The notes beneath the pieces were generated by a model. It was not told the DNA's origin. It worked only from the letters and a program-made list of their open reading frames with translations, and made no database searches. Below are positions 1 to 19,142 of a stretch of 33,392 nt of DNA, in pieces (the stretch's first letter is position 1; every line of letters starts with the position of its first letter). Source of the stretch: Bdellovibrionota bacterium (GTDB lineage: Bacteria; Bdellovibrionota_C; UBA2361; OMII01); contig JBIKWQ010000033.1 of NCBI GenBank assembly GCA_044356215.1, positions 1 to 33,392 of the forward strand. Reading direction: 5' to 3'. Position numbers and translations under genes: made by a program.

Positions 1-13
1 CAAAATATTTTTT

Positions 14-99
14 ACCACAGAGGACGCAGAGGACACAGAGAAAACTCCATAATTGCCCATAAAATGGCCGTTCTCTGTGTCCTCTGCGTCCTCTGTGGT
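14..99. repeat. REP/MITE-like palindromic repeat, copy 1 (perfect 29-bp inverted repeat, 28-nt loop)
   Basis: ACCACAGAGGACGCAGAGGACACAGAGAA (14-42) is the exact reverse complement of 71-99. The arms have an internal 9-nt (A/G)CAGAGGAC periodicity. It lies just 3' of the coupling-protein gene and could also terminate its transcript. Confidence 0.9.
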
Positions 100-133
100 G
101 ATAAAGAACTGCAACGCAATACCGGCGAAATAG

Positions 134-2242
134 TTACTTTCGAATCTTAAAAGGCCCAGTTTTCGGCGGCTGAGCCCCCTGCCTCCGCCGCTTTTCACGC
201 TCCGCTGGCGATAAAGGCTTCGCAACCGTTGTAACAGCGCCTCTTGAGCGACTAAGGGCTTCATCGGTTTTAATCTTAAATGAAGCTGCGGCGCCCTCTC
301 TCTGCTCCCGCTTGTCGGTTTGCCCGACCGTCGACCCTTTCGGCCTTAGCCCTCGATCCTTGGTATCCCCGGCTCCTAAATCACTCTTGGGTTTAGGCGC
401 AAACCGCTCAGATGTTTCGCCTTCCTCACGAGCTAGAACACGCTCATCAACCCAATCTGCCAAACCGATCTCATCAACCTCAAAACGCTCAGGGGTGACT
501 AAAAACTCACGTCCCTCCCATTTTTCAGGGAGCTCCGCGTTGAACCAAAATGATCGGCCCTTCACAATCTTTCCATTCCCGAGATCGAACCACGCCAGCC
601 CTTTTTCCGCCGACATCTCATGCTTGAGCTCCTCGGCACTGACCAGATCTTTCTCGGCTTCAGAAAAGCTTACACTTTGCGATTCGCTTCCTGTTCTGCG
701 AGCGCTGATATCAAAAGCGCCTTTCATCGCTGAACTGCTTACTCCTGTTACAACCCCTGTACCTACCGACTTCTTTGTTGACGTTATCTTACCAAACCAT
801 TCAGTCATGTCCGCCGCGGTGCGGTTATCCCCTATCCGCATCATTACCTTTAGATTGACGTTCGCCATTACCCGCTCGTAAAACGATTCGCTTAGCCCCA
901 TCGCGGCATCTGTTAATCCACCGGTTGATTGAGCGCCAAATAGAAGAGCGAACCTTCCCCTGCGAGCGAGCTCAAATAAGTTGGCCCATGTAGGACCGAA
1001 TGTGGACGAACCTTCGTCGATGATAACTAGATGTGGGTCCTCTAAATTATGAATCCTGGAAGAAGTAATCTCTCCGATAGATACCTCTAAATCCTCGCGG
1101 AAGACCTTCACCATTCGCGCCGCGCTTTCAGCTTCCTCGAGTCTAGGCAACATGAAATAGATGATCTTTCCCCTCAGTATGGCGTCTGTGAGAACGAGAT
1201 CGGTATATTTAGAGCAGAAAACTTCACCAGCGGAGCTCCCGGCGATAGCATGAAGCTCAGAGGCGATGCCGCGCAGATTCTCGGTTATTCGCGCTGAATC
1301 AAGATTCCCTTTTGGGTTTCGGTAGCTCGACGCTAAGTGCCCAAGCTCCACAAGCGCCTGACGCGCACCTATTTTGTGAAGCATATTTCGGAGCTGCGGA
1401 TAAGCGATCTGAAAAGCGGATAGAGCGACCGCGATATCACGAATCGACCAGGACAGACCGAAGCTCTCCATCGCGCGCACCATGCGATAAATAGAGTCCG
1501 CGGCTAATCGATCATAGTGTTTAGTGGAACTCTGATCTGATGTTGGTGGCAGTCCGGCTCGAAGCACCTTACGCGCCTTCACATCGGCTCTCTGATTGGT
1601 CATGACAAAATTATATGAGTGAACTGGATCGAAAGGATCGATAACCACCAGGTCCTCGATGCGACCTGTAATTAAAGCCATCATGATAATGTGCGCTAAC
1701 GTCGCTGAATCGCGTTTGGCGTCGATAAAAGTGCAGCCACTAGCTCGGCCACGCGCCATCTGCTGAAAGATGAGTGACTCCAACCAGAGAGTCTTGCCTA
1801 CTCCAGTTTTAGCGAAGACAGCTCCATGCGTGCAGATTTCATCGTCTGATACCCATAAAGGATCGCCTGAGTCGAGTTCAAAGCCGACTAAATACCGATC
1901 TAGCATCTTTTTGTCTTTGGTCCGACATTCCTCGATTGCTTTGCTGAAGCAACCGCGATCAGGGGGCATACCCAGAACCGGTCTACCACCACGGGCTAGA
2001 GACTCCTTTTGTCGCTCATTCTCTAAGCCCATTCTTTTCCCTAGACTAAATCCACCCATGCCGAGCGCATAAGCAGGAATAATCCCAAGTCCCCACATCA
2101 AAAACGGATCAAGCCCGGCGCCAAACGGAGAAGCGGCCGCTCCTATAGCGCCAAGGGAAGCCAATCCGCCAGTAAATAAGGCGCGCTTGAGCTCTTGTTC
2201 GCTCCGGTTCCTATAGTTTCCCTGTTTATAGTCGCGCGCCAT
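134..2242 (-). CDS. Type IV coupling protein (VirD4/TraD family, DotL/TrbC-like)
   Basis: Two N-terminal hydrophobic segments, Walker A (THGAVFAKTGVGKT), FIDAKRD, GRIEDLVVID, Walker B (LVIIDEG) and ARRGRFALLFGAQS, then a charged disordered C-tail. GGAG precedes the ATG. Confidence 0.88.
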   Translation of the reverse strand: MARDYKQGNYRNRSEQELKRALFTGGLASLGAIGAAASPFGAGLDPFLMWGLGIIPAYALGMGGFSLGKRMGLENERQKESLARGGRPVLGMPPDRGCFSKAIEECRTKDKKMLDRYLVGFELDSGDPLWVSDDEICTHGAVFAKTGVGKTLWLESLIFQQMARGRASGCTFIDAKRDSATLAHIIMMALITGRIEDLVVIDPFDPVHSYNFVMTNQRADVKARKVLRAGLPPTSDQSSTKHYDRLAADSIYRMVRAMESFGLSWSIRDIAVALSAFQIAYPQLRNMLHKIGARQALVELGHLASSYRNPKGNLDSARITENLRGIASELHAIAGSSAGEVFCSKYTDLVLTDAILRGKIIYFMLPRLEEAESAARMVKVFREDLEVSIGEITSSRIHNLEDPHLVIIDEGSSTFGPTWANLFELARRGRFALLFGAQSTGGLTDAAMGLSESFYERVMANVNLKVMMRIGDNRTAADMTEWFGKITSTKKSVGTGVVTGVSSSAMKGAFDISARRTGSESQSVSFSEAEKDLVSAEELKHEMSAEKGLAWFDLGNGKIVKGRSFWFNAELPEKWEGREFLVTPERFEVDEIGLADWVDERVLAREEGETSERFAPKPKSDLGAGDTKDRGLRPKGSTVGQTDKREQREGAAASFKIKTDEALSRSRGAVTTVAKPLSPAEREKRRRQGAQPPKTGPFKIRK

Positions 2243-2290
2243 GCTTACTCCAATGAAGCCCCAAAAGACTTCAACTTTAAACTGATCGGG

Positions 2291-4336
2291 CTATTCAAAC
2301 CCTTCTACTGTCTCTTTTATTGTCGTTACATCCTCTATCCCTCGCAACAGCTTCTGATAGTCGTTTTGAGTCTCCGCTATGGTAACTCGATCAAATGTCT
2401 TGTAACGGGTCTGCCAGTTAGCCCCCCAGACCTCGCGCATCTTCCCGCCACGGAACGCCATCATTCCAGGGAGCCCCAAGAGCCCTAAATCATTGGCGCC
2501 AGCTAGCGGAGCTTTGCTCCCGAAAACCGCGAACATGGTGTGAGTATCAGGAACGGTGTAGTCACCCACCCTACTCGCCAGCCAGCCGAAACTCGATAAT
2601 GCGTAACGCAGTACGACCCAATCTCGTAGCTCATCGCTCTTTAATCCGTGAAGTATGCTCAAATTTTCTATCTCTTGATCAGAGGGTGGATCCGCAATCC
2701 GTTCGAATGCGAGGAGTGTCTCAATAGCAGAATCATCATCACCTCTGATTGTTGCAGAGATCTCCCTCTTTTGGGCGTTGCTTACCCTCTTGAGTAATCC
2801 ACGGAGCTTTACAACGACCGAGTCATCAACCAGGTTTCGCCACTCGCGAGCCACTAACCCCACTGGAAGAAAAAGGAGATCCCCTCTCCCAGCTAACCCG
2901 TTGCGCTTAAAGTTATCGGCCATTGAGCCGGTCGGATTAAAAAATTCGGCCTGCCATAGCAGGGAGAGCTCGCGAATTAACCCAAAAAGCTCTACCTCAG
3001 CGGCTATATCATGAAGATTGTCGGGGCTAGCCATCAGTAGCTCACACCACTGTCTGAGCGCGAATTCGGTAGCGTTGAAATCTGACGGAAGTCGAATCGG
3101 CGCGAACGCGCTCTTTCGGGCGGCGTATACCAGGGCGCGTCGAATCCGAGAGCGGGCTGATGTGTCGTAGTCTGAAGCGAAGGGAATTATCGAGTGTAGT
3201 ATCGATCTCGCGCACAGATGTTGAAAATTAGATCTTCGCACCCAGCGGCCACCTTCATACGAGTGCGCCATCACCTTGCCAGCCTCTAGAGCGAGAACCA
3301 ATGTACCCAATTCGTCGTCAGAAACGTCACCGAGCGCCTGTTTGTTTTGAGGCATCAGGACAGCGCCGAGATACGACCTTAGGTTGTCACTATAACTATC
3401 CGTGTTACACTCTTGACTGTCTTGAGCTACGTCGGAAGTTTCGGGCTCAGCATCGGCCACAAGTGGCGCTCGGGTCTGTAAAGCCACCCGTAGGACCTGT
3501 GTCGCGTGGTCTAATAAACCTAAATTTTCCGCCGACTCATATTGAGCACGCGCCTCCGCGTCCACGGGTATAAAAGATGCAGTATCTCTATACCTCACCA
3601 ATATTCGTACCAAGGCCAAATTGGTCGCGTTTGTAGCTTCGAACTCGCTTAGCACACCCCACAATTCAGAATCTTTAGCCGCTGGCTCGCTGCTTAACTG
3701 GGGGCATGCTAGCCCTCTTATTAGCGCCTTTGGTGCTCCGAAACGATCAACCGAATCAAGCGCGGCGCGAGCTCCTGAGTAGAACACCCTCCCGTTCCCC
3801 ATCTGACCAAGCGAGTCGTTACCCTTATAAGGCCGAAAATAGCGCAGACCCATCAGAAACGAGACTAAGCACACTGCTACGCAAAGACGCCACCCAGCCA
3901 CGCAGAGAAAAACAACCCGAAGTGCCGCGCCGTGCAAACCAATAAAGATCCTTCCTAAGGTTGAGAGTTCATCTTCAGAGATAGCAGCCGAGTTGGAATT
4001 AAGGAGATTCTGTCCGATCATAGAGGCCACGCCATCGAATCCTGAGTACTCGAAGCTGGTACCGTGTACCTTTAGCCATTCCAGGTAGTTTTGCCACTGC
4101 AGCGTATACCTGCTGGACCACTTATGGTGAAGAGCTAAAAGATCCCGGCTGACCTGCCCCGATTGGTCGAGGTGGCCGCCGCTTAGGTTGAACAGATAAG
4201 AGACAAATAGGGCTAATACAGCTAGAGCAGCGGCTGATAACAGAGAAAACGTTATCAAAAGACCGAGGGAGCGCTTGTTTCCAGACCCGAGCTCGCCAAT
4301 CTCCGGGTCGCTCGTGGCTGCCTTAAACCAATTCAC
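2291..4336 (-). CDS. Membrane protein of unknown function (N-terminal TM segments plus large soluble domain); candidate DotM/TrbA-like coupling-protein partner
   Basis: 681-aa ORF with a GTG start and GGAG upstream. Hydrophobic helices at ~aa 24-50 and ~130-165. Co-oriented with, and ends 48 bp upstream of, the T4CP gene. Function is inferred from position only. Confidence 0.7.
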   Translation of the reverse strand: MNWFKAATSDPEIGELGSGNKRSLGLLITFSLLSAAALAVLALFVSYLFNLSGGHLDQSGQVSRDLLALHHKWSSRYTLQWQNYLEWLKVHGTSFEYSGFDGVASMIGQNLLNSNSAAISEDELSTLGRIFIGLHGAALRVVFLCVAGWRLCVAVCLVSFLMGLRYFRPYKGNDSLGQMGNGRVFYSGARAALDSVDRFGAPKALIRGLACPQLSSEPAAKDSELWGVLSEFEATNATNLALVRILVRYRDTASFIPVDAEARAQYESAENLGLLDHATQVLRVALQTRAPLVADAEPETSDVAQDSQECNTDSYSDNLRSYLGAVLMPQNKQALGDVSDDELGTLVLALEAGKVMAHSYEGGRWVRRSNFQHLCARSILHSIIPFASDYDTSARSRIRRALVYAARKSAFAPIRLPSDFNATEFALRQWCELLMASPDNLHDIAAEVELFGLIRELSLLWQAEFFNPTGSMADNFKRNGLAGRGDLLFLPVGLVAREWRNLVDDSVVVKLRGLLKRVSNAQKREISATIRGDDDSAIETLLAFERIADPPSDQEIENLSILHGLKSDELRDWVVLRYALSSFGWLASRVGDYTVPDTHTMFAVFGSKAPLAGANDLGLLGLPGMMAFRGGKMREVWGANWQTRYKTFDRVTIAETQNDYQKLLRGIEDVTTIKETVEGFE

Positions 4337-4548
4337 CTGAAGCTCCCCACCTAAAACCGATCCAGAGCGATTACCCTACGGGGCTATAACCGCAGCAACT
4401 AATTAAGTAAAGTGTGCCATAGCTGCAGCACTTTGCCCATTAGTGTCGACAAGTGAGGAGGTGCTTTAGACATGTGACTCTGCATCTAAGATTGTCTTAA
4501 GCATTCTTGGCTTTAGGGCGATACGGATTATCGGGGTGTTAAATTAAT

Positions 4549-4911
4549 ATGGGTGCTAAAATGTTTAATAAATTGACGCCGTTTCTAGCTATTCCATTGT
4601 TATTATTCAGCTTTTCGGCCTTGGCTGATGCGAATTCTAAGAATCTAGGTGGCGCGAGGCCTGAGGTTGCCGCGGAGGCCGTAGCACACTATGCCCGTTC
4701 CCGAGCGCTATTAGTCTCCGCTTTGAATGAGTTCGACAAAGGACGAAAGCTGGCCAGGCCAGATGAGCTAATAGATTCCACCAAATGGCGTAACACCTTG
4801 ATAGATCGAGCCGAGGACTTAGAGAGAGTCCTCGACCCTCAGCCTCGAGCGACCCGGGGTGGCATCAAGTTCGAGGCGGATCCTCGACTTTTACCTGAAG
4901 CGAAACGATAA
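4549..4911 (+). CDS. Small exported hypothetical protein, first gene of the T4SS operon (alternative start 4561)
   Basis: Signal peptide (MFNKLTPFLAIPLLLFSFSALA), helical mature part, 38 bp upstream of the TraL-like gene. Confidence 0.7.
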   Translation: MGAKMFNKLTPFLAIPLLLFSFSALADANSKNLGGARPEVAAEAVAHYARSRALLVSALNEFDKGRKLARPDELIDSTKWRNTLIDRAEDLERVLDPQPRATRGGIKFEADPRLLPEAKR

Positions 4912-4949
4912 GAGTAGCTGATTATAGATCGAGGCAGGTAAGGACAGAT

Positions 4950-5345
4950 ATGGACGAAGGTCACGTAATTCCAGCACTTAATGAGGATTGGTCATTCGCA
5001 GGAGCAAAGCTCATGGAATGGATGGCTGGTATTACTACGGCCTTTCTGGCCAGTACGGCGGTCGAAAAACCCGCCCACTGGATGCCGTTTCTAGTCCTAA
5101 TCATGATCGGGACTACTCTTTCACTAGCGACTCTTCGGAAGAGATTTCCGGACGAGGAACGCGGGGTGATGAATCTTTTTATGACTACGTGTGGATTCGC
5201 TCCTCCTGGCATTCCGACTCCAGCGAAGCTTCAGCCACGCTGGAGCGGTGGCAGGATTCATAACTTGAAGGATAGCTCATTGTACATGCAGCTTGAACTC
5301 GACGATGTAGTCTACATGGCTCAAGTTGAGCCGAAGAAGCGGTAG
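4950..5345 (+). CDS. traL: TraL/VirB3-like inner-membrane T4SS protein
   Basis: HVIPALNEDWSFAG start, two TM helices, then RKRFPDEERG..CGFAPPGIP, which matches the TraL layout. First in the L-E-K-B-V order. Confidence 0.65.
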   Translation: MDEGHVIPALNEDWSFAGAKLMEWMAGITTAFLASTAVEKPAHWMPFLVLIMIGTTLSLATLRKRFPDEERGVMNLFMTTCGFAPPGIPTPAKLQPRWSGGRIHNLKDSSLYMQLELDDVVYMAQVEPKKR

Positions 5346-5360
5346 GTAGGGAAAGGCGCT

Positions 5361-6077
5361 ATGAGAAAGATTAAGGTCGCTGACGCAATAAAGGAAAAGG
5401 TCGCCGATACCAACCTCGCGGTGGGGCGTGATAAGAGCGACACAATTCGCCTCTGGGAGAATTACAAGGACCAATCATTAATGTGGAGATCCCTCTCCCT
5501 GATTCAATTTCCAACCACCCTGATCGCGATAGGATTTGCTATTCTAATGTGGTCAACGCGCGAGATAACCCTAACCGTTCCATCAAAGCCGATGCCGGGC
5601 ATCTACGCCGCTCAGGATATTCCGGATAACGAGTTTGTTAACGTCGCGCTTGATTATGTCAACCTGATAGCTACCTATCAGCCAAGGACCGCTAGACGTC
5701 AGTTTGAGGCCGCATCGGCTATGTTGAAAGAGCCTCTTCTGACAAAGTTTAGAGAAGAGATGATTAACTCTGAGCTGGGGGCGATAGAGAGCTCATCCAG
5801 AACTCAGGTTTTCTTCACAGATCCCCTAAAAACATCTGTATCTAGACGTGGAAACGAGGTGACTGTTTCACTTATAGGTGAGCGGTGGAAAGTGATAGCC
5901 GGAGCTGAGCTGCCGACTGTCACGAGCCGGTTTAGGGTGACGATGACAACTATTCCGAAAAACGCGATTAATCCGTACGGTATCGTTATATCAAGCGTAA
6001 CCTTTAAGTCTAATACTAAAGGTGAGCGAATCAGTGATAATGACGCCGATGACGATTCACTAGGAGCTGAGCGATAA
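5361..6077 (+). CDS. traE: TraE/VirB8-like bitopic T4SS protein
   Basis: Single TM, then EFVNVALDYVNLIATYQP (TraE-like) and a C-terminal NAINPYGIVISSV (VirB8/NTF2-like NPxG motif). Confidence 0.75.
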   Translation: MRKIKVADAIKEKVADTNLAVGRDKSDTIRLWENYKDQSLMWRSLSLIQFPTTLIAIGFAILMWSTREITLTVPSKPMPGIYAAQDIPDNEFVNVALDYVNLIATYQPRTARRQFEAASAMLKEPLLTKFREEMINSELGAIESSSRTQVFFTDPLKTSVSRRGNEVTVSLIGERWKVIAGAELPTVTSRFRVTMTTIPKNAINPYGIVISSVTFKSNTKGERISDNDADDDSLGAER

Positions 6078-6883
6078 TGAGAGCCAACATGAAGAAATCA
6101 TTTCTTGTTTTGTCTTTGGCTGTAATGGCCATTAACCTATCGAGACCTGCCCTGTGCTTTGCGCGAGATGTTGAATACTCCAGTGGAGCCGGTGAGATAC
6201 CCGTATGGATTAACCCTGGTGAGCCGACTGAGATAATTTTTGAAGGTGGCAATATCAAGAATGGTTACAAGAATAAAACTTCGCCGATTGATATTGATCG
6301 GAGAGGTTCATCGCTGGTGCTATTTGGTAAAGAGAATATAAGCGAGAACGGAGAGGCGTTGTTGGTACGTCTTGATAACGGGACCTCCTATCCTATTCGT
6401 GTTCGCAAAGCTAACTCTGATAATCCACGCGATGCTCAGGTAGTTGTTGGCGATGGAAAGGGAGCGATGGGAGGCGAAGAGGAGGTAGCGCCGCCATTCC
6501 AAGAGAGGTCTTTCGAGTACGCCCCAGCTAGCAAGGTCTCAGGACTGATGCGTGAAATGGCTTTAGTAGCTGAATTCGGCAAGGCATCGATCCCGGGCTA
6601 TCAGGTTAGTGATAAGTTTAAAGGGCAGACTGTAGTGAGTGACGGGTCGATTATCGCTAAAATTGACCGAATATTTGTAGGACCTAACCTGTGGGGATAT
6701 GTTCTTGACGCGTCTAATCTCCTAGATCAGTCACAGAAGATTAATCCGGCATCGTTTAGGATAGACGGAACAAGAGCTGTATCGGCCTCGAACTGGGAGC
6801 TATCAGCGAGGCCAATGACCGTTGAGAATCAGATCGCTGGTCGCGAAAAGGCCAAGGTCTACATCGTAACAAAGGCGCGCTAG
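6077..6883 (+). CDS. traK: TraK/VirB9-like outer-membrane core complex protein
   Basis: Signal peptide, N-domain GEPTEIIF, and a TraK-like C-domain (YVLDASN..INPASF..GTRAVS..AKVYIV). TAATG stop/start overlap with the upstream gene. Confidence 0.75.
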   Translation: MRANMKKSFLVLSLAVMAINLSRPALCFARDVEYSSGAGEIPVWINPGEPTEIIFEGGNIKNGYKNKTSPIDIDRRGSSLVLFGKENISENGEALLVRLDNGTSYPIRVRKANSDNPRDAQVVVGDGKGAMGGEEEVAPPFQERSFEYAPASKVSGLMREMALVAEFGKASIPGYQVSDKFKGQTVVSDGSIIAKIDRIFVGPNLWGYVLDASNLLDQSQKINPASFRIDGTRAVSASNWELSARPMTVENQIAGREKAKVYIVTKAR

Positions 6884-6891
6884 GAGATCAT

Positions 6892-8055
6892 ATGTTGCAA
6901 TTATTACGAGATTTAGCTTTAAAGCTCAGAAGCGACAGAAAGACTCAATTCATCGCTCTCTGTCTTCTAGGAGCCGCGGCGTACATGTTTGTGGCCGATG
7001 GTCCAGTTGCTCGCAGAGCTGCCAAGCCGAAACCCCAAGTTCAGGTGGGAGCTAACGATCCCAACGAGCGTTGGACTGATCTAGTGCAGCGTTTCAACGG
7101 ACAACTGACACAGTTACAGAATACAACCGGACAGCTACAGGAAGAGGTAGCTAATCAGAAAAAGGCGATGCAGGAGTACGAGGCCACGACAGCCGAGATA
7201 TTCAAAAAGATCTTGGAGAGGTTAGAGCAAGTGCAGTCGACCACAGCCGCGCAAAGTGTAACTAACATGGGACCTCAGGACCTTGGTGGAATTACCGATA
7301 CAGCGCCGGTAAGCGCTAACATGGATGAGCTTGAAAAAATTGAAGATGACCCGTCAGTCGCGGTTCAACCCCCACCTCAGCCAGCAAAGCAACGACTCGC
7401 TGCTATTATGCCGGGTGACTCGGTTAGGGTTAAACTCCTCGCTGGAGTTAACGCTCCAACAGACGGAACTCCTTACCCGGTGGTACTAAAGTTAGTCGGT
7501 GATGTCGTTGGTCCTGATGGCAACACAATTCCTCTTGGTGAAGGGCGTCTAATCGCCGCCGCGCAGGGATCGCTAACAGATTCAAGAGCACTCCTCAGAA
7601 TTACTCGCTTGAGTATCCGTATGCCAAATGGTCGCCGAAAAGAATTTCCAGTCGATGGATGGATCGTCGGTGAGGATGGTATTCGAGGTATGGAGGGTGT
7701 TCTGATTGATCCGATCGGCAAAGCGATCGTGGGAGCTGGAATGGCGGGCAGTCTCGCTGGATTAGGACAAGCCATGCGAGCGGCTAATACTAGAAATACG
7801 ATTTACGGGAACGGCACATCATTAGAGACAGTAGATCCAGGCGCGATTCCGCAGTACGCGGCTGGGTTGGGCGTCGCCGGAGCCGCCAATGAGTGGCAGC
7901 AGATTATCCGAGATCGTTTGAGGATTTTAGTTCCAGTAGTTCAAGTTTTATCCGGACGAGAGGCGACCGCTGTCTTCTCGCAATCGTTGGCCATTCCTGA
8001 TCTCTTGGATCAGGTAGACCAGGACCCTTCCGTGGTTTATACGGCGTTAGATTAG
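6892..8055 (+). CDS. traB: TraB/VirB10-like core protein
   Basis: N-terminal TM, coiled coil and Pro-rich linker, then PGDSVRVKLLAGVNAP..PYPVVL, RALLRITRLS and VDGWIVGEDGIRGMEG, typical of F-type TraB. Confidence 0.88.
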   Translation: MLQLLRDLALKLRSDRKTQFIALCLLGAAAYMFVADGPVARRAAKPKPQVQVGANDPNERWTDLVQRFNGQLTQLQNTTGQLQEEVANQKKAMQEYEATTAEIFKKILERLEQVQSTTAAQSVTNMGPQDLGGITDTAPVSANMDELEKIEDDPSVAVQPPPQPAKQRLAAIMPGDSVRVKLLAGVNAPTDGTPYPVVLKLVGDVVGPDGNTIPLGEGRLIAAAQGSLTDSRALLRITRLSIRMPNGRRKEFPVDGWIVGEDGIRGMEGVLIDPIGKAIVGAGMAGSLAGLGQAMRAANTRNTIYGNGTSLETVDPGAIPQYAAGLGVAGAANEWQQIIRDRLRILVPVVQVLSGREATAVFSQSLAIPDLLDQVDQDPSVVYTALD

Positions 8056-8074
8056 GTTTTTTGGAGGAGTAATT

Positions 8075-8521
8075 ATGAGACCCCTACTCGTTCTCTCTGT
8101 AGCATGTATGACCGCCGTCCTCAGTGGATGTAGCGCTATCGGACATGTGCTCAATCCATTCTATGAGACGCCGTCAGAGGTGGCGTACTTCGGCGAAAAA
8201 AATGACGGTGCTCTGCTTGGCGAAGGCAGCGGTGGTAAGGACGCAAGTGCTAGAGCTGCGTTACAAGCGATGGGCTCATATCAGCGCGCTCATTCCCCGC
8301 AGCCAAATAATCCAGTAATGCAGCCGGCCGTTGTAAGACTTATGTGGGTCCCTGATCATTTAAATTCACATGGTGACCTGGTCCCGGCCCACTACTATTA
8401 CCTCAAAGTTAAAAAGGAGCAGTGGGCGGTTAGCGATGCTTTTGAGCTAGAGGCGCAGCTTAACTCATCCACTGGAAATGCGTCAGCGATAGGTTTTGTA
8501 AGTCCGGAGGACATCCGCTAA
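8075..8521 (+). CDS. traV: TraV-like outer-membrane lipoprotein
   Basis: Lipobox LSGC. C-domain PAVVRLMWVPDHLNSHGDLVPAHYYYLKVKKEQW resembles the TraV C-terminus. GGAGG RBS. Confidence 0.75.
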   Translation: MRPLLVLSVACMTAVLSGCSAIGHVLNPFYETPSEVAYFGEKNDGALLGEGSGGKDASARAALQAMGSYQRAHSPQPNNPVMQPAVVRLMWVPDHLNSHGDLVPAHYYYLKVKKEQWAVSDAFELEAQLNSSTGNASAIGFVSPEDIR

Positions 8522-9012
8522 TGCGCGCGATTCTTGTTATTGGATTGATCTCAGTTCTCACTGCTGGATGTTCAGGGGTAAAGGAGTATCAACCAATTCC
8601 GAAAAAAAACGGTCTCTTTATGCCTTCTGTCAGAACAGCGGCGCCAGAGCCAGTGTATTCGCGCACTCGTTGGGTGAGACCACCAGAGGTCCTTCCTCAA
8701 AGGGATCTCCCCGATGGACAGAGCTCGCAGCTAGCAGATTCCCCTAGTATTAGACCGGTGTTTCAATTAACGCTCTCCAACGCCACTCTAGAGGAAACCG
8801 CTAGAGTCCTCGCCGCCACCGCTAGATATTCGAGTTATACAGCGCCATCTATCGCAAAAGATAAGATTTCTGTAAAAAACCTTGGAACAATCGACGAGCT
8901 CGCGCGGATTATAGAGAGTAAGGCCCGTGTTCAGGTCGTTGTTGACCATCAGAACAGGGAGGTCCGTTTTCTGGCCGCTCAAGTCGAGCAGCCAAGACTT
9001 TATGACGAGTAG
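8521..9012 (+). CDS. Lipoprotein with DotD/secretin-N0-like domain
   Basis: Lipobox TAGC and Pro-rich linker, then LTLSNATLEETARVLAATARY..ISVK..TIDELARII..VQVVVDHQNREVRF, the pattern of DotD/STN-type domains. Confidence 0.6.
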   Translation: MRAILVIGLISVLTAGCSGVKEYQPIPKKNGLFMPSVRTAAPEPVYSRTRWVRPPEVLPQRDLPDGQSSQLADSPSIRPVFQLTLSNATLEETARVLAATARYSSYTAPSIAKDKISVKNLGTIDELARIIESKARVQVVVDHQNREVRFLAAQVEQPRLYDE

Positions 9013-9017
9013 GTACT

Positions 9018-11759
9018 ATGAGTATCAATCGGTTACAGCGCCAGCGACTATTCCAAGATGAGGAGCTCTTTAACAAGCTGCTCCCCTTCGCGAGATATGA
9101 TCAGGAGAACCAGATCTTTGTTCACACTGACGCTTCGCTCTGGTCTATCTGGGAGCTTCAACCGAAATGGATCACAAAGGTTTCTGATGCCGAAGCTTTC
9201 CAGCTCTGCGAGCGCGTTCAGGAGATGTTGGACTCCTTAGAGCATACCTTCTCAGCGCAATTCTGCTGGATTACCACCTTCGATGTAGAGGATCTGTTGC
9301 GAGATTGCATGAATCGATATCCCCTCTCGGGTCCGTCCGGCTGGATGGCAAAGAGGTGGATCCGTTCAATCAGAATGGCGAGTCAAAGCCGCTCTCTTCA
9401 CAGACGACCACGAAAGCTCAGATTGTACGCGTGTTTTAGGTACGATCCACCGTGGCAGGGAAAGGGCTTGGCCGAGCAGCTTGCTAGGACGCTAAAAATG
9501 TTTTTCTATGGGGCCGTCGGCCAGAGCGCTGAACAGCGCTATACCGAGTACATGGGCTTCGCCAATAAATTTAAAGGCGTGATGGATGGCACAGCGGCCA
9601 AATTGGCCGACCTGGGATTCTATCCAAGACGTGTTGATGGTCAGGGCTTGATAAATGTTCTCTACCCTATCCTGAACAGGCGCAGCGTTAAGCCTGGAAA
9701 GTATCGTCGCGGCAGAGGCACAGCTATTCCGGTTCCAGAGTACGATCCAGAGGATTTACTAGCTAACCAGATCTCAGAGACCCACGTGGAGCATCCGCGT
9801 GACGGAATCATCAGAAAGGATGGACGGGTGTTCCGCTCCGTGTCGATGGTGAAACCGCCGAAGATGTGCATGCCTCTAATGATAGCGCCACTGCAGTCGG
9901 CTCCTTATGAGAATATTCTTAGCGTGACATTCTCAAAGGAGCCTAAGGAGCGTCAGCTAGAACGACTTGACAGACTAGACGGAACGCTGGGTATGCGCGA
10001 AAGGAGCTGGTCGGGACGCTCCAATCAAAAGGTAATCCATCAGATCGCGTCGATCAGACAAGCTAGGCAGGAGTTATACAACTCGCGCGAGCAGATAGTT
10101 GATGTTGGAGTTCACCAGACCTTCATATGCCAAAACGACGACGAGGCGGTTCGAGCGACATCTGAGGCGATCGCCTCATTCCCGCAGCTTAACGGAGCAC
10201 GCGGTATGGCGCACGAGATCTCCGACATGGCAGTTCTGATCAACTCACTTCCTGGCGCTTACGATCCATCGACAGACGGCTCGGGGTGGACAACCACTGT
10301 TCAGTCCTCGCGAGCGGTGCGGATGTTTCCGCTATGGGGCAATTGGCGCGGGAGCGCCGGTAGTCAGATACTCCTCCCAAGTTTGTGGAATCGAGAACTC
10401 GTCGGATTTGATTTATTCGACTCAAATATAGCCCCAAACGTTCTGATAAGCGGAGTATCGGGAGCTGGTAAGAGTTATCTGATGTGCTTTCTGATCACTA
10501 TGCTTAATCGCGGACACTACTCAACCCTGTCAGATGGGCGCGTAGTCGCACGAAGTCCGATCACATTTATCTTTGATAAGGGTATGGTTGGACAGCCTTG
10601 CGGATTTGAGAAGATCGCCAAGCTGTTTGGAGGAAGGATATATGAGGCGACTCCGTCAAGAGCGCCAGCGATGAACTTCTTAGCTCGTCTGGGTGAGCTT
10701 ACCCCTGACGCGCGAAGCGATGATTACAAGGATTTGATCGATATGTGCGCGGATGTTATCTGCGACATGGCAACTGATGGCAATAATGTTCCGGATAGAC
10801 TCGAACGAGGAAGCGTATCAGAGTCCCTGATTGAGGCTCATCGTATTTACAGAAGCGGTCCGATGCGTCGAGAGTTTATCTTGAGCGACGTGGTGTCTGT
10901 ATTAAGAGCGCCACGGCGCGTTGACGAGACCGACGATGGCGCGAAGAGACGCCAACGAATCGCGGCATTAATAGCAGATTATTACGGAGAAGGTACCTAT
11001 GCCAGGTTCTTTGACCGCCCTGGATCTTTAAAGCTTAAGGAGCGCTTCATAGTCTTTGATCTCAAGGCATTGAGCAGAAATCCTGACCTTCAGAGGGTGT
11101 TTTTAAAGATTGCGATGGTTTGGGCTGATACAGTAATGAATGACCCGCGTGAGCTAGATACCCGTAAGGTTCTAGTATTCGACGAGGCGCATGAGCTGAT
11201 CGGTAAAACGCAAGCTTCGACGATAGAGACAGCTTTCCGACTTTACCGAAAGCGCAAAGGAATTGTGATCGCGGCTTCGCAATCTGGAGAGGACTTCTAT
11301 GTCGGTTCTGGTGGACAGGCTATCGTGCAGAACAGCGCGCATAAGATATTTCTCCGCCAGGATCCGAATAAGTTTCACTTAACGGCGCAGGCTTTTAACC
11401 TGAGTCCTCAACAAGCGGATGTAATTATGCGGTTGAGAACGATTAAGGGTGTTGAATCGCAGTTCTACCTCTCATCGGATATCGGTGAGGGTGCTCTGGT
11501 ATTGCCCGTAGAACCAGCCTTCTATTGGGTGAGTACCAATAACGGAGACGATAACCAGCTATTTACCGATGCCATGACCCGTCACAATGACGACTTCAGT
11601 AAGGCGCTTGAAGAGGTGGTGATGGTGGCCCCGTACGGAGCCAAGGAGTTGCAACAGCGGATGATGGGAGGCGGCGGCGCAGATGATTCCGAGTCGATGG
11701 ACGTAAGCGGCGCAATCAACTCAATGATGGACAGTGGGTTTAGAGATTCAAACATGTAG
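9018..11759 (+). CDS. traC: VirB4/TraC family T4SS ATPase
   Basis: 913 aa with Walker A (NVLISGVSGAGKS), FIFDKG, Walker B (VLVFDEAH), RLYRKRKGIVIAASQ and QNSAHKIFLRQ. Confidence 0.93.
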   Translation: MSINRLQRQRLFQDEELFNKLLPFARYDQENQIFVHTDASLWSIWELQPKWITKVSDAEAFQLCERVQEMLDSLEHTFSAQFCWITTFDVEDLLRDCMNRYPLSGPSGWMAKRWIRSIRMASQSRSLHRRPRKLRLYACFRYDPPWQGKGLAEQLARTLKMFFYGAVGQSAEQRYTEYMGFANKFKGVMDGTAAKLADLGFYPRRVDGQGLINVLYPILNRRSVKPGKYRRGRGTAIPVPEYDPEDLLANQISETHVEHPRDGIIRKDGRVFRSVSMVKPPKMCMPLMIAPLQSAPYENILSVTFSKEPKERQLERLDRLDGTLGMRERSWSGRSNQKVIHQIASIRQARQELYNSREQIVDVGVHQTFICQNDDEAVRATSEAIASFPQLNGARGMAHEISDMAVLINSLPGAYDPSTDGSGWTTTVQSSRAVRMFPLWGNWRGSAGSQILLPSLWNRELVGFDLFDSNIAPNVLISGVSGAGKSYLMCFLITMLNRGHYSTLSDGRVVARSPITFIFDKGMVGQPCGFEKIAKLFGGRIYEATPSRAPAMNFLARLGELTPDARSDDYKDLIDMCADVICDMATDGNNVPDRLERGSVSESLIEAHRIYRSGPMRREFILSDVVSVLRAPRRVDETDDGAKRRQRIAALIADYYGEGTYARFFDRPGSLKLKERFIVFDLKALSRNPDLQRVFLKIAMVWADTVMNDPRELDTRKVLVFDEAHELIGKTQASTIETAFRLYRKRKGIVIAASQSGEDFYVGSGGQAIVQNSAHKIFLRQDPNKFHLTAQAFNLSPQQADVIMRLRTIKGVESQFYLSSDIGEGALVLPVEPAFYWVSTNNGDDNQLFTDAMTRHNDDFSKALEEVVMVAPYGAKELQQRMMGGGGADDSESMDVSGAINSMMDSGFRDSNM

Positions 11760-11775
11760 TTTTATGGAGAGTTAT

Positions 11776-12072
11776 ATGAGAATTAACACATTTCTTCATG
11801 GTGCGGCCCTGCTAATAATCACGGTAACTGGTGTTGGCTGTGGTTGCTGCGGATCGTCAAAGTCGGAAGTTGTTAAGCCAGCTTTAGTGGAGTATCGTGT
11901 CCAGGATGTCCCAGGTGCCGTAGAGTACATCTGGGAGGAACCGATGGTCGATGTAGTTGATATACCCCCTGGCCTCGATCCTGAGGGGCATTATTACAGA
12001 CCAGGCCATCAAGAGGTGGTAGAGGTGCGACAAGGTAGGTGGCAATACTACAAACGGCCCAATTCGAAATAG
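11776..12072 (+). CDS. Small lipoprotein, second TraV-like protein
   Basis: GGAG RBS before the ATG at 11776. Hydrophobic leader ending GVGC(GCC). C-domain PMVDVVDIPPGLDPEGHYYRPGHQEVVEVRQGRW aligns by eye with the 8075-8521 C-domain. Confidence 0.65.
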   Translation: MRINTFLHGAALLIITVTGVGCGCCGSSKSEVVKPALVEYRVQDVPGAVEYIWEEPMVDVVDIPPGLDPEGHYYRPGHQEVVEVRQGRWQYYKRPNSK

Positions 12073-12093
12073 GATAGCTACCAATAGAAAGCT

Positions 12094-12441
12094 ATGAGTC
12101 TAATAAGTGTTAAAAATCTCTTCGGCCCCCTCGGTAACAAGTTTCAGATGGGTGGGCTGATAATAGCTGTGGCTCTCGTTTTGGCTATTAGGATGGGAAG
12201 CAGCCTACCATCTAGGGGGGATGATGACCGTGGATACGACCGTTCCGGTGTGGCCCCGGCTGCGCTAAGAGATTTTAGGAGAAATGAGAAAAATCAAAGG
12301 GGCCTGCCCTCAAAGACGACCGATGACGTTCTGGATAGCCTGATCGAAGGTAAGTTGGACGACAATGAGCCCCAGGATGAAGGCCAAAACGAGAAAGGCG
12401 AGTCATTTCAGGATATTAGAAAGTCTTTGGGCCTCGAATAA
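12094..12441 (+). CDS. Small single-pass membrane hypothetical protein
   Basis: One TM (GGLIIAVALVLAI) followed by an acidic/charged tail; 21 bp after the previous gene. Confidence 0.65.
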   Translation: MSLISVKNLFGPLGNKFQMGGLIIAVALVLAIRMGSSLPSRGDDDRGYDRSGVAPAALRDFRRNEKNQRGLPSKTTDDVLDSLIEGKLDDNEPQDEGQNEKGESFQDIRKSLGLE

Positions 12442-12604
12442 GGAGAGCTCGAGCAGTTTTTAGGCGTCTCCCTCCGCTAGCCTCGGATGCATTAATTTCA
12501 AAATCTTACCTGAAGCAGAAGTCGCTTAAGTCACGATAAGACTGAGACAGTTTCATAACGGATTATAGACTGTTCGGTTTTGGGCTGCCAGAAAGGACTA
12601 ACTC

Positions 12605-13645
12605 ATGTTCTTCAATGATTTTAAAGTAAATATGACAACCACTAAGCTGCGGGCCTCATTACGACTCGTCGTAGCTACTATGACCGTTCTCGAGCCGTTT
12701 CTCTGCGGAGCGGCTTCGGCTCAATTTAATGAAGCCGACATGGTTGATTCATTCGCTCCTGCTGAGGCGAGTCCAGCGGATTTTCACAACGAAAAATTCA
12801 AAGAGGCCGAGCTGGCGTTAACTCAAGGTCTAGCAAGGTCAATCGCGCCTGTTGCTCAAGAACGAAAACAACCAAATTTAAGGCAGGTGTCTGCAGTATC
12901 AAGCCCGAAAATAAAACCAGAGGTAAACGAGAATAGACATGGTGTGCCGGTTATCACGGATGGGCTCGGTGTTACTAATACTCAGATCGATCTGGACGAC
13001 TTCGCCGATACATCGCGAATGAAGGCGGAAAAGACTGAAAGGATCGCCAAAGTTTCTAAGCCGGTCGCTCCGATACAGGCCAAACCAGATGTTAAGCCGC
13101 AGGTTCAGGTTGTCCAAAACAAAAATTCTGAACAAGAGAAAGAGATCTCCGATTTACGACGGGAGCTAGCTGAGGCTCGGAGCTCATTAGCCGCGGCGGA
13201 ACTGGAGATATCGAGATTATCCAGCATTATTCAGGACTCAAGCAGGGCGCGACTAAATATAAAAGAGTCCCCGGCACTCTCTCAGCAAAAGAAGCCGTCG
13301 CAAAGCGAAACCGTGGCGCGAATCAATAGCAGACCGCCGGTACCACAAAATACCGCGCTGGCGAGCGGGCAGGATATCGGCTCAGACTTGCAGGTAGCAA
13401 TGGTATCCGTAGACAAAGCAGACCTTAGACTAGGACCAGGAAGAAATCACTCCGCGTTGATGAGCCTCAGAAGAGGCTCTCGGCTCGCGGTCGAGGCCCG
13501 TCAAGGTGAGTGGTATCGAGTTTTCGCTCCTAACGGCCAAAGGGCATGGATCCATTCAGCTCTAGTTAAGTTCGGAGACGGCGCTGCTAGCATGAACGAT
13601 GGCAGCTCCGTCAAAGTGAAGGGATATGATAGCGGTATTAGGTAG
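12605..13645 (+). CDS. Exported coiled-coil protein with C-terminal bacterial SH3 (SH3b) domain
   Basis: Signal-like N-terminus, coiled coil EISDLRRELAEARSSLAAAELEISRL, and SH3b signature ADLRLGPG..LRRGSRLAV..GEWYRV..GQRAWIH. Start uncertain (12605 or 12632). Confidence 0.8.
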   Translation: MFFNDFKVNMTTTKLRASLRLVVATMTVLEPFLCGAASAQFNEADMVDSFAPAEASPADFHNEKFKEAELALTQGLARSIAPVAQERKQPNLRQVSAVSSPKIKPEVNENRHGVPVITDGLGVTNTQIDLDDFADTSRMKAEKTERIAKVSKPVAPIQAKPDVKPQVQVVQNKNSEQEKEISDLRRELAEARSSLAAAELEISRLSSIIQDSSRARLNIKESPALSQQKKPSQSETVARINSRPPVPQNTALASGQDIGSDLQVAMVSVDKADLRLGPGRNHSALMSLRRGSRLAVEARQGEWYRVFAPNGQRAWIHSALVKFGDGAASMNDGSSVKVKGYDSGIR

Positions 13646-14180
13646 ACCTTCTAAACTACGGATTCTTTCGCCGCTTTACGCTATCATAACAGCGCTGAGC
13701 GGCATTTATCTTCCGTCAGATGCCCAAGCTGTTCCACTGATCGGTAGCGTGGGACAACAGATTAATTCCAATTTCGTTTACCCTGTCATGGGGCCACGAA
13801 CCTCAAGTAGCTTCGGGGCGCGCTGGCATCCGGTCAAGAAGAAAGTTAAGCGCCACCATCACGGAGTTGACTTAGCCGCTCCCAAGGGCTCAATAATAAG
13901 AGCCATAGCTGATGGTCAGATAATCTATTCAGACCCGCTGGGCGGCTACGGCAATCTGATCGTGATTAAGCACGCTAATGGCCTCACTAGTCACTACGGA
14001 CACTGCGACAAAACCCGCGTCTCTGTTGGTAGAGCAGTGAGAGCTGGCGATATAATCGGCACTGTAGGAAGCTCTGGCTTGTCCACCGGTCCGCATCTTC
14101 ATTTTGAGATCCGCCAGGATGGACAGCCGAAACACCCTGAACAGGTACTCCCCGGACTAGACCTCCCAGCGGCGGGATAA
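13626..14180 (+). CDS. M23 family metallopeptidase (peptidoglycan endopeptidase)
   Basis: SSSFGARWHP, HHGVDLAAP, GYGNLIVIKH and STGPHLHFEIR zinc-binding motifs; N-terminal signal sequence. Confidence 0.93.
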   Translation: MIAVLGRPSKLRILSPLYAIITALSGIYLPSDAQAVPLIGSVGQQINSNFVYPVMGPRTSSSFGARWHPVKKKVKRHHHGVDLAAPKGSIIRAIADGQIIYSDPLGGYGNLIVIKHANGLTSHYGHCDKTRVSVGRAVRAGDIIGTVGSSGLSTGPHLHFEIRQDGQPKHPEQVLPGLDLPAAG

Positions 14181-14239
14181 CTGCCAGTCGCAGCTCATAC
14201 TGAACACGCTTAGATTTAGGACAATACTCGCCCAATGTA

Positions 14240-14390
14240 CGAGCCTAACGTTTTTTTTAATCAGCAAATTTTTTTCAATAATTATGTCACACGTCGCTTT
14301 GATGTTAGCATAACCTATGTAGAAACTGGGGCGTGAAAGACCGCCGTATTTGAAGAGATAGAAATTAACATTTAATTTAAGGATTGTTTT
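14240..14390 (+). promoter_or_regulatory. AT-rich intergenic region, probable dedicated promoter/RBS for the pilin gene
   Basis: The 210-bp gap after the M23 gene contains poly-T/AT tracts, and AAGGA lies just upstream of the ATG at 14391. Promoter boxes not resolved. Confidence 0.4.
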
Positions 14391-14834
14391 ATGAAGGCTA
14401 AAATAACATCAATGTTTAACAAGACACGTGAGGCAGCTCTGGACCTTGGCAGAAAAGTGGCGGTAGCTAAACGCGCCCCATCAGAGGCACAAGGACGCAT
14501 GATACTCTTCACGTTCGGAATTGTATGTCTTGGTCTAGCGTTTTCTGACCACGCTCTCGCGAATGACTGGGCAGCGCGTTCCGGACAGGTTGAGGATACC
14601 CGTATCGCGCAGGCGGTAGCGACTCTCTTTACCTTCCTAGAGGGAAGCTTTGGAGCGTTAATCATGGCGGCTTCCGGAATCGGAGCTGTTCTCAGCGCCG
14701 CGTTCGGTCAGTACAAGGCCGCCCTAAGCTGTATGGTTGTGGCAGTGGGAGCTTTCATCCTCCGCTCGATGATGAACACGTTCTTCAACGTTACAAGCAT
14801 CGAAGGCCAGGGCGATTTCAGCTCGGTTAACTAA
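14391..14834 (+). CDS. VirB2/TrbC/TraA-like pilin precursor
   Basis: ~57-aa leader ending HALA. The mature part has LFTFLEGSFGALIMAASGIGAVLSAAFG-QYK-AALSCMVVAVGAFIL: two hydrophobic helices with a basic loop, typical of T4SS pilins. Confidence 0.75.
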   Translation: MKAKITSMFNKTREAALDLGRKVAVAKRAPSEAQGRMILFTFGIVCLGLAFSDHALANDWAARSGQVEDTRIAQAVATLFTFLEGSFGALIMAASGIGAVLSAAFGQYKAALSCMVVAVGAFILRSMMNTFFNVTSIEGQGDFSSVN

Positions 14835-14850: not shown

Positions 14851-14914
14851 GCGCCCGCGAGGGCGCTCTGCCCCCTGATTCACCGATAAGGCTGGGTCAG
14901 GGGGTTTCCTTTTT
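14851..14914. terminator. Hairpins between the convergent pilin and pseudokinase genes; probable terminator
   Basis: GCGCCC-GCGA-GGGCGC (14851-14866, GNRA loop). CCCCCTGA (14871-14878) pairs with TCAGGGGG (14897-14904) and is followed by TTTCCTTTTT. Confidence 0.45.
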
Positions 14915-18371: not shown

Positions 18372-18599
18372 ACTGTGATAAGCACTTCTAAAAACGCGTC
18401 ATTTGCCAAATTTAGGCTCCACGGATTAAGCCGCTATCCTGCGCGTCAAAAAGTTTACCCTGGCAGGACGGTTTAATTCACGTATAATCAAACCCTTAAG
18501 GCAACCGTTGGAAGATTATAAACGTTTTCCCCGTTTTATCAAAGAGACGCCCACTAAGGGAGGCGGGGCAAAGCATAGGAATTTTAAGTGAGGTCACTT

Positions 18600-19142
18600 A
18601 TGAGCATGAGCATCGAAGATATGGAGGAGATTTTTACCCGCATAACGGAGGAGTACGAGGAGCCGGTTCCTATCGGCGGTAGGTGTGAAAGCCGGATCTT
18701 CTATCGAGTTGAGGATTTAAGTGACGCTGACCTTAACACTTGTGCCGAGTACGTAGCCGATCGCATAAGAAATGTGGTCTCCCCAAATAAGCCTCAACTT
18801 TTCTTGAAGTTGCCGGGTGGTTATTCGTTTTTCGCCGAGCGTCTGTGCGCTGTGTATTCAGAGCTGTATAATGGCGGCAAAGAGATACCGCTAGAGCAAT
18901 ACCTTGAGAGTAAGCTCTCAAATGGACACGGAGAGAAGTACAAGGGTTATCAGACTATACTTGTCACGGACGTTATCACCACAGCGCGCTCAAGTCTTGA
19001 AGCCCATACTCGCGCTACCTTGCGAGGAATTCCCGTCTTGTGTTGGGCAACGTTGATAGATCGAACATTTGGTCCGGGCCCAGTACCTGTAGTTTCCGCA
19101 TTCACGGGCGCGTCTGTGCGAGTACTTACACAGGTGGGATAG
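18600..19142 (+). CDS. Type I phosphoribosyltransferase-fold protein (PyrE-like, degenerate)
   Basis: ILVTDVITTARSS resembles the PRPP-binding loop, with LIDR downstream. GAGG precedes the ATG at 18600 (the ORF track starts at GTG 18588). Confidence 0.65.
   Translation: MSMSIEDMEEIFTRITEEYEEPVPIGGRCESRIFYRVEDLSDADLNTCAEYVADRIRNVVSPNKPQLFLKLPGGYSFFAERLCAVYSELYNGGKEIPLEQYLESKLSNGHGEKYKGYQTILVTDVITTARSSLEAHTRATLRGIPVLCWATLIDRTFGPGPVPVVSAFTGASVRVLTQVG

Follow-up and report, generated by a model that had tools for sequence, protein, structure and literature searches.

Type IV secretion systems (T4SSs) that are fixed in the chromosome and carry no relaxase are found in Rickettsiales, Legionellales and Patescibacteria, where they are central to living on other cells. 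In a report on the Patescibacteria (PMC12102498), the T4SS is described as phylum-wide, chromosomal and phylogenetically distinct, with most clusters devoid of a relaxase, and it is interpreted there as having been co-opted from conjugation. Three other reports describe the gonococcal F-like island (GGI) of Neisseria gonorrhoeae, a chromosomal F-like T4SS engaged in DNA secretion and not in plasmid mating (PMC12857230), the vertical inheritance of Dot/Icm within an order (10.1101/852004), and F-like systems acting in biofilm formation (PMC12491478). Here we analyse a gene cluster at positions 134-14834 of a 33,392-base stretch of DNA, hereafter the window, which is the whole of contig C120 of a 131-contig, 3.24-Mb metagenome-assembled genome (96% complete) of a Bdellovibrionota bacterium. 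A first-pass annotation had proposed that the cluster represents a new T4SS class, a chromosomal, relaxase-less mosaic of an F-type core with Dot/Icm parts. The reading we favor, with a probability of roughly 0.6, is that the cluster encodes a host-owned T4SS derived from F-type conjugation (mating-pair formation class MPF_F, with an SXT-like gene order), which became fixed in the chromosome and is vertically inherited across a small Bdellovibrionota-like phylum. No description of the system was found in a full-text search of the literature, and neither Bdellovibrio nor predation turned up in a term search of the available text of the 2025 T4SS nomenclature review.

The distribution of the cluster supports this reading. 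From the operon of the type IV coupling protein (T4CP) to the pilin gene, 56 loci of other species have the same gene order, and ispG follows the cluster in the same genus and beyond. An orthologue of TraC, the VirB4 ATPase, was found in all 41 sampled relatives. When the sample was the whole GTDB phylum (124 genomes, one class, 36 families), TraC was present as a single copy in 121 genomes, with identities of 56-94%, and none of the 73 high-quality genomes lacked it. In two of the three genomes without TraC the T4CP is present, so that their TraC is simply unassembled; only the genome G095 is devoid of all of TraC, the T4CP and p160, a gene of about 160 codons that follows the T4CP gene in relatives. 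The median identity of TraC, 84%, compares with 81% for the neighboring ispG, and the two are correlated (r = 0.93, n = 18), but as adjacent genes they are not independent, and the phyletic pattern is the stronger argument. The GC content is uniform, 0.47-0.53 within the cluster, the same as in the flanks and inside the overall range of the contigs. The machine is not a self-transmissible element. Since it is a permanent chromosomal presence in nearly every species, it most likely serves the cell itself, in export or cell contact, and not a mobile element; the first-pass view of a domesticated, relaxase-less chromosomal machine has good support.

The obvious objection is that the cluster could be an ordinary integrative conjugative element (ICE), or its decaying remnant, with the relaxase and TraN, TraG, TraH, TraU, TraW and TraF just past the end of the contig. 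The position of that end lends this some force. A dispersed repeat of ~117 bp begins 17 bp past the stop codon of the T4CP gene, and the contig terminates there, 133 bp past the gene. The repeat, a near-perfect hairpin of the MITE/REP type (miniature inverted-repeat transposable element/repetitive extragenic palindrome) with a predicted folding energy of -65.6 kcal/mol, has 154 blastn matches over 75 of the 131 contigs, 35 of them touching contig ends; it breaks the assembly and is a main cause of its fragmentation. The same repeat also occupies positions 33309-33392, at the other end of the window. An open reading frame (ORF) at 1..264 on the minus strand, which overlaps the 3' end of the T4CP gene and the repeat and matches no family, was rejected as most likely spurious.

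Because the window spans a complete contig with a repeat at its end, nothing can be concluded from absences within it, and the question was settled in relatives. Long contigs are available for five relatives, and in all five the T4CP gene is followed by p160 and then by housekeeping genes, with no conjugation gene. In G001 the housekeeping genes are ileS, ftsJ and those of sulfate activation; G002 and G005 have genes for a PKD/GSDH protein, an FMN reductase and ETF, G004 has PBP2/RodA, and G003 has a response regulator, hemF and flagellar genes, so that the flanks vary between families (ileS/ftsJ, ETF, PBP2/RodA, flagellar). Further, all genes of the cluster are intact, its presence is near-universal and single-copy instead of patchy, its composition matches the genome, TraC is as conserved as ispG, and a family scan of the window, in which att sites were not searched, found no integrase. 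The sporadic relaxases of the lineage, described below, speak for an ICE. On balance, an ICE is already contradicted and is the least probable reading by far, and the earlier view of the cluster as chromosomal and distinct from an ordinary ICE holds.

Relaxases were sought in two sets of genomes. The families PF03432, PF08751, PF03389 and PF07514 were absent from five genomes, among them 3-, 5- and 1-contig assemblies. In 47 genomes at least 94% complete, TraI_2 (MOBH) was found in none, TrwC (MOBF) in 2 and PF03432 in 8; the TrwC and PF03432 matches are scattered, and none is on the TraC contig of its genome. It is these two PF03432 and TrwC counts that can be cited in favor of an ICE, and the same figures support the conclusion that no relaxase is conserved with the system, as "relaxase-less" had implied. 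Profiles of the F-specific proteins TraN, TraH, TraU, TraW_N and TraF (PF06986, PF06122, PF06834, PF12477 and PF13728) gave nothing over their cut-offs in the five genomes, TrbC (PF09673) not having been searched, and the absence of these proteins recorded by the first-pass annotation is upheld. Its description of the machine as "minimised" does not fully hold, in that p160 and a second locus, on contig C46, exist elsewhere in the genome.

The features of the cluster and its surroundings are collected in Table 1. The earlier picture of an intact, tightly packed cluster in F order is borne out: every gene named in the cluster is an intact ORF at its place, and the gene junctions between 4549 and 12441 are tight, from -26 to +38 bp. 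A family scan of the window confirmed that ispG, tgt, queA and coaBC flank the cluster.

Table 1. Genes and repeats of the T4SS locus, with positions in the window unless another contig is named.
Feature	Position	Strand	Basis or remark
Dispersed ~117-bp hairpin repeat copy	1..117	.	blastn against own genome; outside the machine
T4CP, VirD4/TraD class	134..2242	-	TraG-D_C, 24 bits against a cut-off of 22
orf681, membrane-anchored protein	2291..4336	-	First gene of the T4CP operon
orf120, small secreted protein	4549..4911	+	First gene of the core operon
TraL/VirB3-position gene	4950..5345	+	Position only
TraE, inner-membrane VirB8-class component of F-type systems	5361..6077	+	Pfam TraE
TraK, VirB9-class outer-membrane core component	6077..6883	+	Weak TraK_C match and matches of orthologues
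TraB, VirB10 class	6892..8055	+	Pfam TrbI and NCBIfam
TraV lipoprotein, VirB7 class	8075..8521	+	Lipobox LSGC and Pfam TraV
orf163, lipoprotein with C-terminal N0 (secretin/DotD-type) domain	8521..9012	+	Lipobox TAGC and AF2/Foldseek
TraC, VirB4 ATPase	9018..11759	+	TraC_F_IV, P-loop_TraG, TIGR02746
orf112, small lipoprotein	11734..12072	+	Lipobox GVGC; directly after TraC
orf115, small membrane-anchored acidic protein, poorly conserved	12094..12441	+	No Pfam or NCBIfam match
Secreted coiled-coil protein with C-terminal SH3b	12605..13645	+	SH3_3, E 1e-9
M23 peptidoglycan endopeptidase	13626..14180	+	Peptidase_M23, E 5.5e-34
orf147, pilin-like protein (VirB2/TraA type)	14391..14834	+	Layout of leader and helices
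orf763	14897..17188	-	Kinase-like N-terminus, one transmembrane segment, helical-repeat C-terminus
p160, ~160 residues (159 aa), no known family	C99:4306-4779		Own genome, off the window; follows the T4CP gene in relatives

The core operon runs in the order of F (TraL-position gene, TraE, TraK, TraB, TraV, TraC), with TraE and TraB over their profile cut-offs. TraE, with one transmembrane segment, scores 25.8 bits against a cut-off of 24.8; TraB scores 56.5 bits to Pfam TrbI against a cut-off of 35, and 47.3 bits to the NCBIfam F-type TraB. The TraK in the window is sub-threshold (TraK_C, E 0.0032), and TraK_N or TraK_C is the sole family match in 9 of 10 orthologues, the best of them at 28.4 against a cut-off of 28.5. 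Similarly, the TraV in the window is sub-threshold (19.6 bits to Pfam TraV), and all ten orthologues match TraV alone, three of them over the cut-off. The TraL-position gene, which lies directly upstream of TraE as in F and encodes 131 residues with one hydrophobic segment, had a Tra-family match in none of 10 orthologues. The proposed order from TraL to TraC stands, with TraL assigned by position only. TraC itself scores 56.2 bits to Pfam TraC_F_IV against a cut-off of 28.1, and of the NCBIfam families it matches TIGR02746 best, with 205.9 bits where the equivalog cut-off is 567; the other families matched are VirB4_CagE (107 bits), the MPF_G model (46.5) and a Bacteroidetes model (29). A Walker A motif, GAGKS, and a Walker B motif, VFDEAH, can be read from the translation.

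All of the comparisons of TraC lead back to F-type systems, at a considerable distance. Among 72,556 plasmids, the best 30 matches are 21.8-26.4% identical, and 28 of these 30 are annotated as traC or TraC family. Among 1.84 billion representatives of ~15 billion proteins, only one full-length relative reaches 50% identity, and it is the representative of the clade itself; the next full-length relative, at 30% identity, is F-type. We scanned 53 proteins, namely this representative and 52 relatives from outside the clade, selected among ~100 full-length matches; all of them scored best as TraC-F-type, with six over the equivalog cut-off. In a quick maximum-likelihood tree (63 rows, 838 columns, LG+G4), the TraC clade is monophyletic (SH-aLRT 100) on a stem of 1.44 substitutions per site, the longest internal branch, and it joins a group with canonical F-type TraCs with weak support (87). 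This refutes nesting within an ordinary ICE clade; a class outside MPF_F is not established by it. Instead of a new class, the system is more aptly seen as an isolated and very divergent branch within the F-like radiation.

The closest described arrangement is that of the MPF_F plasmids of the SXT/R391/IncA-C-like type, represented by the P. aeruginosa plasmid NZ_CP017294, which has the common traL-traE-traK-traB-traV...traC order, then a small gene, and also a mobH-traD-148-aa unit with the same layout as orf681-T4CP-p160 here. TraC, TraE, TraB, TraK and TraV all match F-type profiles. In contrast to such plasmids, the TraC described here is only 22-26% identical, there is no MobH or other conserved relaxase, and TraN, TraH, TraU, TraW_N and TraF are not detected. 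The N0 lipoprotein orf163 stands in the place of dsbC, and where the plasmid has trbC-traU-traN downstream of traC, this cluster has M23/SH3b and the pilin. The T4CP operon and the core operon diverge, and the whole system belongs to the chromosome and is fixed in the lineage. As a precedent in kind, the Patescibacteria T4SS comes closest, with which it shares a near-universal, chromosomal, distinct VirB4 and the lack of a conserved relaxase; that system comes from the monoderm MPF_FATA, whereas this one is a diderm F-type with an outer-membrane core of TraK, TraB and TraV and with the T4CP kept. The GGI, a horizontally acquired island, is likewise a chromosomal F-like T4SS with a role other than plasmid mating, but the cluster described here extends across its lineage and has no conserved relaxase.

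Likeness to Dot/Icm in the proteins comes down to two points, the DotD-like fold of the N0 lipoprotein and the fact that DotL is the only solved T4CP matched by sequence; vertical inheritance is a further feature in common, Dot/Icm being reported to be inherited in this way within an order (10.1101/852004). An AlphaFold2 (AF2) model of orf163 has a pLDDT of 96-97 over residues 80-150. Its top Foldseek match is the Legionella Dot outer-membrane core chain 6x62 (E 5.9e-4), and DotD itself, 3ady, is matched at E 0.021 with a root-mean-square deviation of 2.5 over 81 columns. Secretin N0 and STN domains rank between these two, and Xanthomonas VirB7 was also matched, so that the fold is common well beyond Dot; judged from the model, the DotD likeness is that of a generic N0 fold. 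The "DotD-like lipoprotein" thus has its lipobox and an N0 domain like that of DotD, a likeness shared with secretin and STN domains. In addition, the ATPase is an F-type TraC and not DotO, the rest of the core is TraE/K/B/V, the DotL match covers 83 residues, and no DotM-like match was found for orf681. Together with the F-type assignment of TraC and its 52 outside relatives, this makes the proposed mosaic with Dot/Icm parts an overstatement.

In NCBIfam, the T4CP scores 60.9 bits to SXT_TraD and 50.8 bits to the IncI-type TrbC_conju, both far below their own cut-offs, and its only sequence match in the PDB is DotL 6sz9 (E 2e-12), over residues 120-202 around Walker A. Identity to plasmid TraD is ~24%, in short pieces. 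In 14 orthologues, Walker A (GVGKT) and Walker B (IIDEG) are invariant, together with hundreds of other columns, and the gene is present in 44 of the 47 genomes at least 94% complete. In our genome p160 lies directly behind another copy of the contig-ending repeat, which occupies C99:4039-4155 just upstream of the gene; given the same repeat on both sides of the break, the order is almost certainly orf681-T4CP-[repeat]-p160. The p160 protein is 71-92% identical among G001, G002, G003 and G005, and that of our genome is 65-89% identical to other loci. It is single-copy in 114 of the 124 genomes (72 of 73 high-quality ones), often within ~15 kb of TraC, and often on the TraC contig even where the T4CP gene has moved away.

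The arrangement invites an alternative in which the machine exports or takes up chromosomal DNA, or carries out an Hfr-like exchange. In this case orf681 would be a relaxase-like protein, degenerate or not recognised as such, p160 would be a partner that binds single-stranded DNA (ssDNA), and chromosomal ssDNA would be moved out or between cells. The order orf681-T4CP-p160 mirrors that of mobH, traD and the 148-aa gene of the P. aeruginosa F-like plasmid, orf681 taking the place of the MobH relaxase of SXT-type F-like plasmids, and the extreme conservation of the T4CP would suit such a role. MOBH relaxases carry an HD domain, and the middle domain of orf681 (residues 218-456) resembles HD folds at a middling Z of 8-9 in VIA-align; helical bundles were matched likewise, and this Z is within the range reached by unrelated helical models. 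The nearest Atlas clusters of p160 are phage hypothetical proteins, one of which has Whirly, an ssDNA binder, in 12% of its members, at a score of 0.85, below the tool's own line of 0.9. The GGI is reported to move DNA likewise (PMC12857230).

Against this alternative, TraI_2 is missing from all 47 genomes, no oriT-like inverted repeat was found in the divergent intergenic region at 4300-4600 (nor a match to a sigma-70 promoter), and two homologies were tried with hhalign against single-sequence templates and rejected, that of orf681 with the plasmid MobH (probability 0.1%) and that of p160 with the plasmid 148-aa protein (1%). DotM was rejected too as an identity of orf681, none appearing in a PDB profile search, Foldseek or VIA-align. 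The orf681 protein, syntenic in 28 loci at 26-43% identity, had no sequence or profile match in Pfam, NCBIfam or the PDB, and its AF2 model (pLDDT 78) had no whole-model Foldseek match at E 1e-3 or better. It is predicted to be built of N-terminal membrane helices, a disordered loop with an invariant G-N-G-R, a helical middle and a C-terminal beta domain. Since it has neither an invariant Tyr nor an invariant H-D pair, we read it as a non-catalytic, lineage-specific partner of the T4CP, "degenerate relaxase" being the minority view. For p160, no Pfam match was found in three orthologues from relatives and no PDB match by profile, and of its 618 homologues the 120 listed are all unnamed or "hypothetical protein". 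We consider DNA exchange unlikely as the function of the machine. The first-pass preference for protein secretion over DNA transfer goes too far all the same, as the weak Whirly lead of p160 keeps a DNA substrate possible, and for the host-owned machine that we favor, a protein and a nucleoprotein are both possible as cargo.

Downstream of TraC the genes depart from the plasmid pattern. The small lipoprotein orf112, kept in 48 loci at a median identity of 55%, had been taken for a second TraV-like lipoprotein; the lipobox is there, and membership of the TraV family is not supported, with no match to any family in eight orthologues. The M23 gene is syntenic in 38 loci, and its domain suggests that the endopeptidase may be the wall-opening enzyme of the machine. 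The pilin-like orf147 begins with a leader of ~55 residues that closes with A-x-A, after which come two hydrophobic helices in which 20 columns are invariant. This is the layout of VirB2/TraA pilins, with marginal support from sequence: TrbC/VirB2 pilin was matched in one of seven orthologues (E 0.0058), and a profile search of the PDB gave only VirB2 8exh, at E 5.2. The identification as a pilin therefore stands on the leader and the two helices, the family match being weak. In four of four metatranscriptome libraries, from four studies, short contigs fall on the core operon, almost all at 98% identity or more, and the deepest contig cover in all four is on the pilin gene, a gene not included in the stretch by which the RNA runs were found. 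No RNA-library contig was seen at 134-4336, where lack of cover is not evidence of silence.

It can be argued from the pilin that the machine is a pilus and nothing else, a conjugative-type appendage for adhesion, surface attachment or aggregation through which nothing is translocated. The deep cover of the pilin-like gene would fit, as would the one family (f18, genomes G084 and G085, 94-97% complete) which keeps TraC, the pilin and p160, and in which the T4CP is undetected even with a profile; F-like biofilm systems have also been published (PMC12491478). Such a device leaves unexplained the conservation of the T4CP, with its 44 of 47 genomes, its hundreds of invariant positions and both Walker motifs, and that of orf681 and p160 together with it. 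We regard a pilus-only device as clearly improbable, below DNA exchange in our ranking.

The statement that no VirB6-like gene is present is not supported in view of a second locus, off the window at C46:37868-44141, which consists of a gene for a thioredoxin-like protein, a gene for a 577-aa protein and a TraG_N/VirB6-like gene. The TraG-like protein (C46:40791-44141) is polytopic, with 1116 residues, and scores 22.8 bits to PF07916 (TraG_N) against a cut-off of 36.1; its homologues in G056 reach 41-46 bits, over that cut-off, and two of 17 members of the family exceed it. The gene is present in 109 of the 124 genomes. In other orders it occurs in tandem, with at least five in a row in G056 and duplicated pairs in G098, and the C-terminal halves of the paralogues are long, variable and of low complexity. 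These tandem paralogues recall the multiplied VirB6 genes of Rickettsia. The thioredoxin-like protein, trx393, is a secreted protein of 393 residues with a thioredoxin-like C-terminus without CxxC, and p577 is secreted and contains Cys, its sole lead being an Atlas score of 0.83 to TraW-like clusters. Of 12 loci that tblastn located in 11 other genomes, 8 hold both the thioredoxin-like and the TraG-like gene, and most of those loci have an ORF of similar size between the two. The C46 order of a thioredoxin fold, a large periplasmic protein and TraG recalls the traF-traH-traG order of F; trx393 and p577 have no sequence support as traF and traH, and C46 is unlinked to the core.

Taken together, a working model can be envisioned in which TraK, TraB, TraV and the N0 lipoprotein would form the outer-membrane core, and the TraL-position protein, TraE and TraC an inner-membrane platform that would polymerise the pilin; the TraG_N/VirB6-like protein of C46 is probably part of that platform. 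M23/SH3b would open the cell's own peptidoglycan, replacing the usual lytic transglycosylase. The T4CP, orf681 and p160 would select the substrate and pass it on to the channel, through which it would be released outside or enter a contacted cell.

Several points weigh against a host-owned machine working in this manner. No substrate, effector or target can be named for it. The TraL-position gene, orf112 and the pilin are identified by position or topology only, and the RNA-library contigs cannot exclude DNA carry-over and cannot prove transcription. The relaxase search left out MOBV, MOBC, MOBT and MOBB, and the TraC tree has no non-F outgroup and is rooted at the midpoint. The absence of the T4CP from G084 and G085 means that dependence on a coupling protein is not universal. 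In none of the genomes compared does the second locus share a contig with TraC, and G095 (one contig, 82% complete) is without TraC, the T4CP and p160 yet keeps the TraG-like module; the link between module and machine thus rests on weak homology and co-occurrence.

If the host-owned T4SS is what it seems, the same step that produced the chromosomal, relaxase-less systems of other lineages was taken here by an uncultured freshwater lineage that is Bdellovibrio-like, starting from an F-type ancestor, with a VirB4 conserved like core metabolism and with the usual F-specific pilus and mating proteins undetected. It would provide a minimal F-type core made by nature and a setting in which T4CP recognition can be studied in the absence of a relaxase, with a T4CP operon that holds two partners of no known family, orf681 and p160. 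The machine is, moreover, a strong candidate for the lineage's key organelle of contact or feeding. G084 and G085, which have no T4CP, and G095, which has the TraG-like module in the absence of TraC, the T4CP and p160, are natural contrasts for function. A bolder version, which we hold to be doubtful, though a little less so than DNA exchange, is that the system makes up a ninth MPF lineage, diderm and host-owned, and is an injection machine derived from the F pilus on which the way of life of the whole predatory or epibiotic phylum would depend. A new module for recruiting substrates, composed of membrane-anchored orf681, the T4CP and p160, would load a nucleoprotein or effector cargo without a relaxase, and the expanded TraG/VirB6-like paralogues would give variable contact or target specificity.

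The orf120 protein has a signal-like hydrophobic segment at its N-terminus and is found in 38 loci at a median identity of 64%; orf115 was found in 18 loci at 29-45% identity, and neither had a Pfam or NCBIfam match. Beyond the pilin gene, orf763 is syntenic in 24 loci (26-57% identity) and is a conserved neighbor whose membership of the system is uncertain. It has a weak match to the LanL kinase domain in NCBIfam (E 4.6e-4). Read by eye, its motif is HGHISPAN where kinases have HRDxKxxN, with His at the position of the catalytic-loop Asp, and the protein may be a pseudokinase regulator.

Outside the cluster, three genes of the window deserve mention. The gene at 18588-19142 (+) encodes a 184-aa protein with a weak phosphoribosyltransferase-like match; it is the most conserved in the neighborhood, at 60-95% identity across loci, and is inverted in two. 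At 24794-28231 (+) lies the gene for a secreted protein of 1145 residues with a DUF1554 domain, known from Leptospira, and an endostatin/collagen NC10-like domain. Finally, an uninterrupted ORF of 1301 codons at 28871-32776 (-) encodes a complete MutS (domains I, III, IV and V) followed by a C-terminal Amidase_3, an N-acetylmuramoyl-L-alanine amidase domain, with hydrophobic segments near residues 890 and 1250; it is either an odd fusion or two genes read through.

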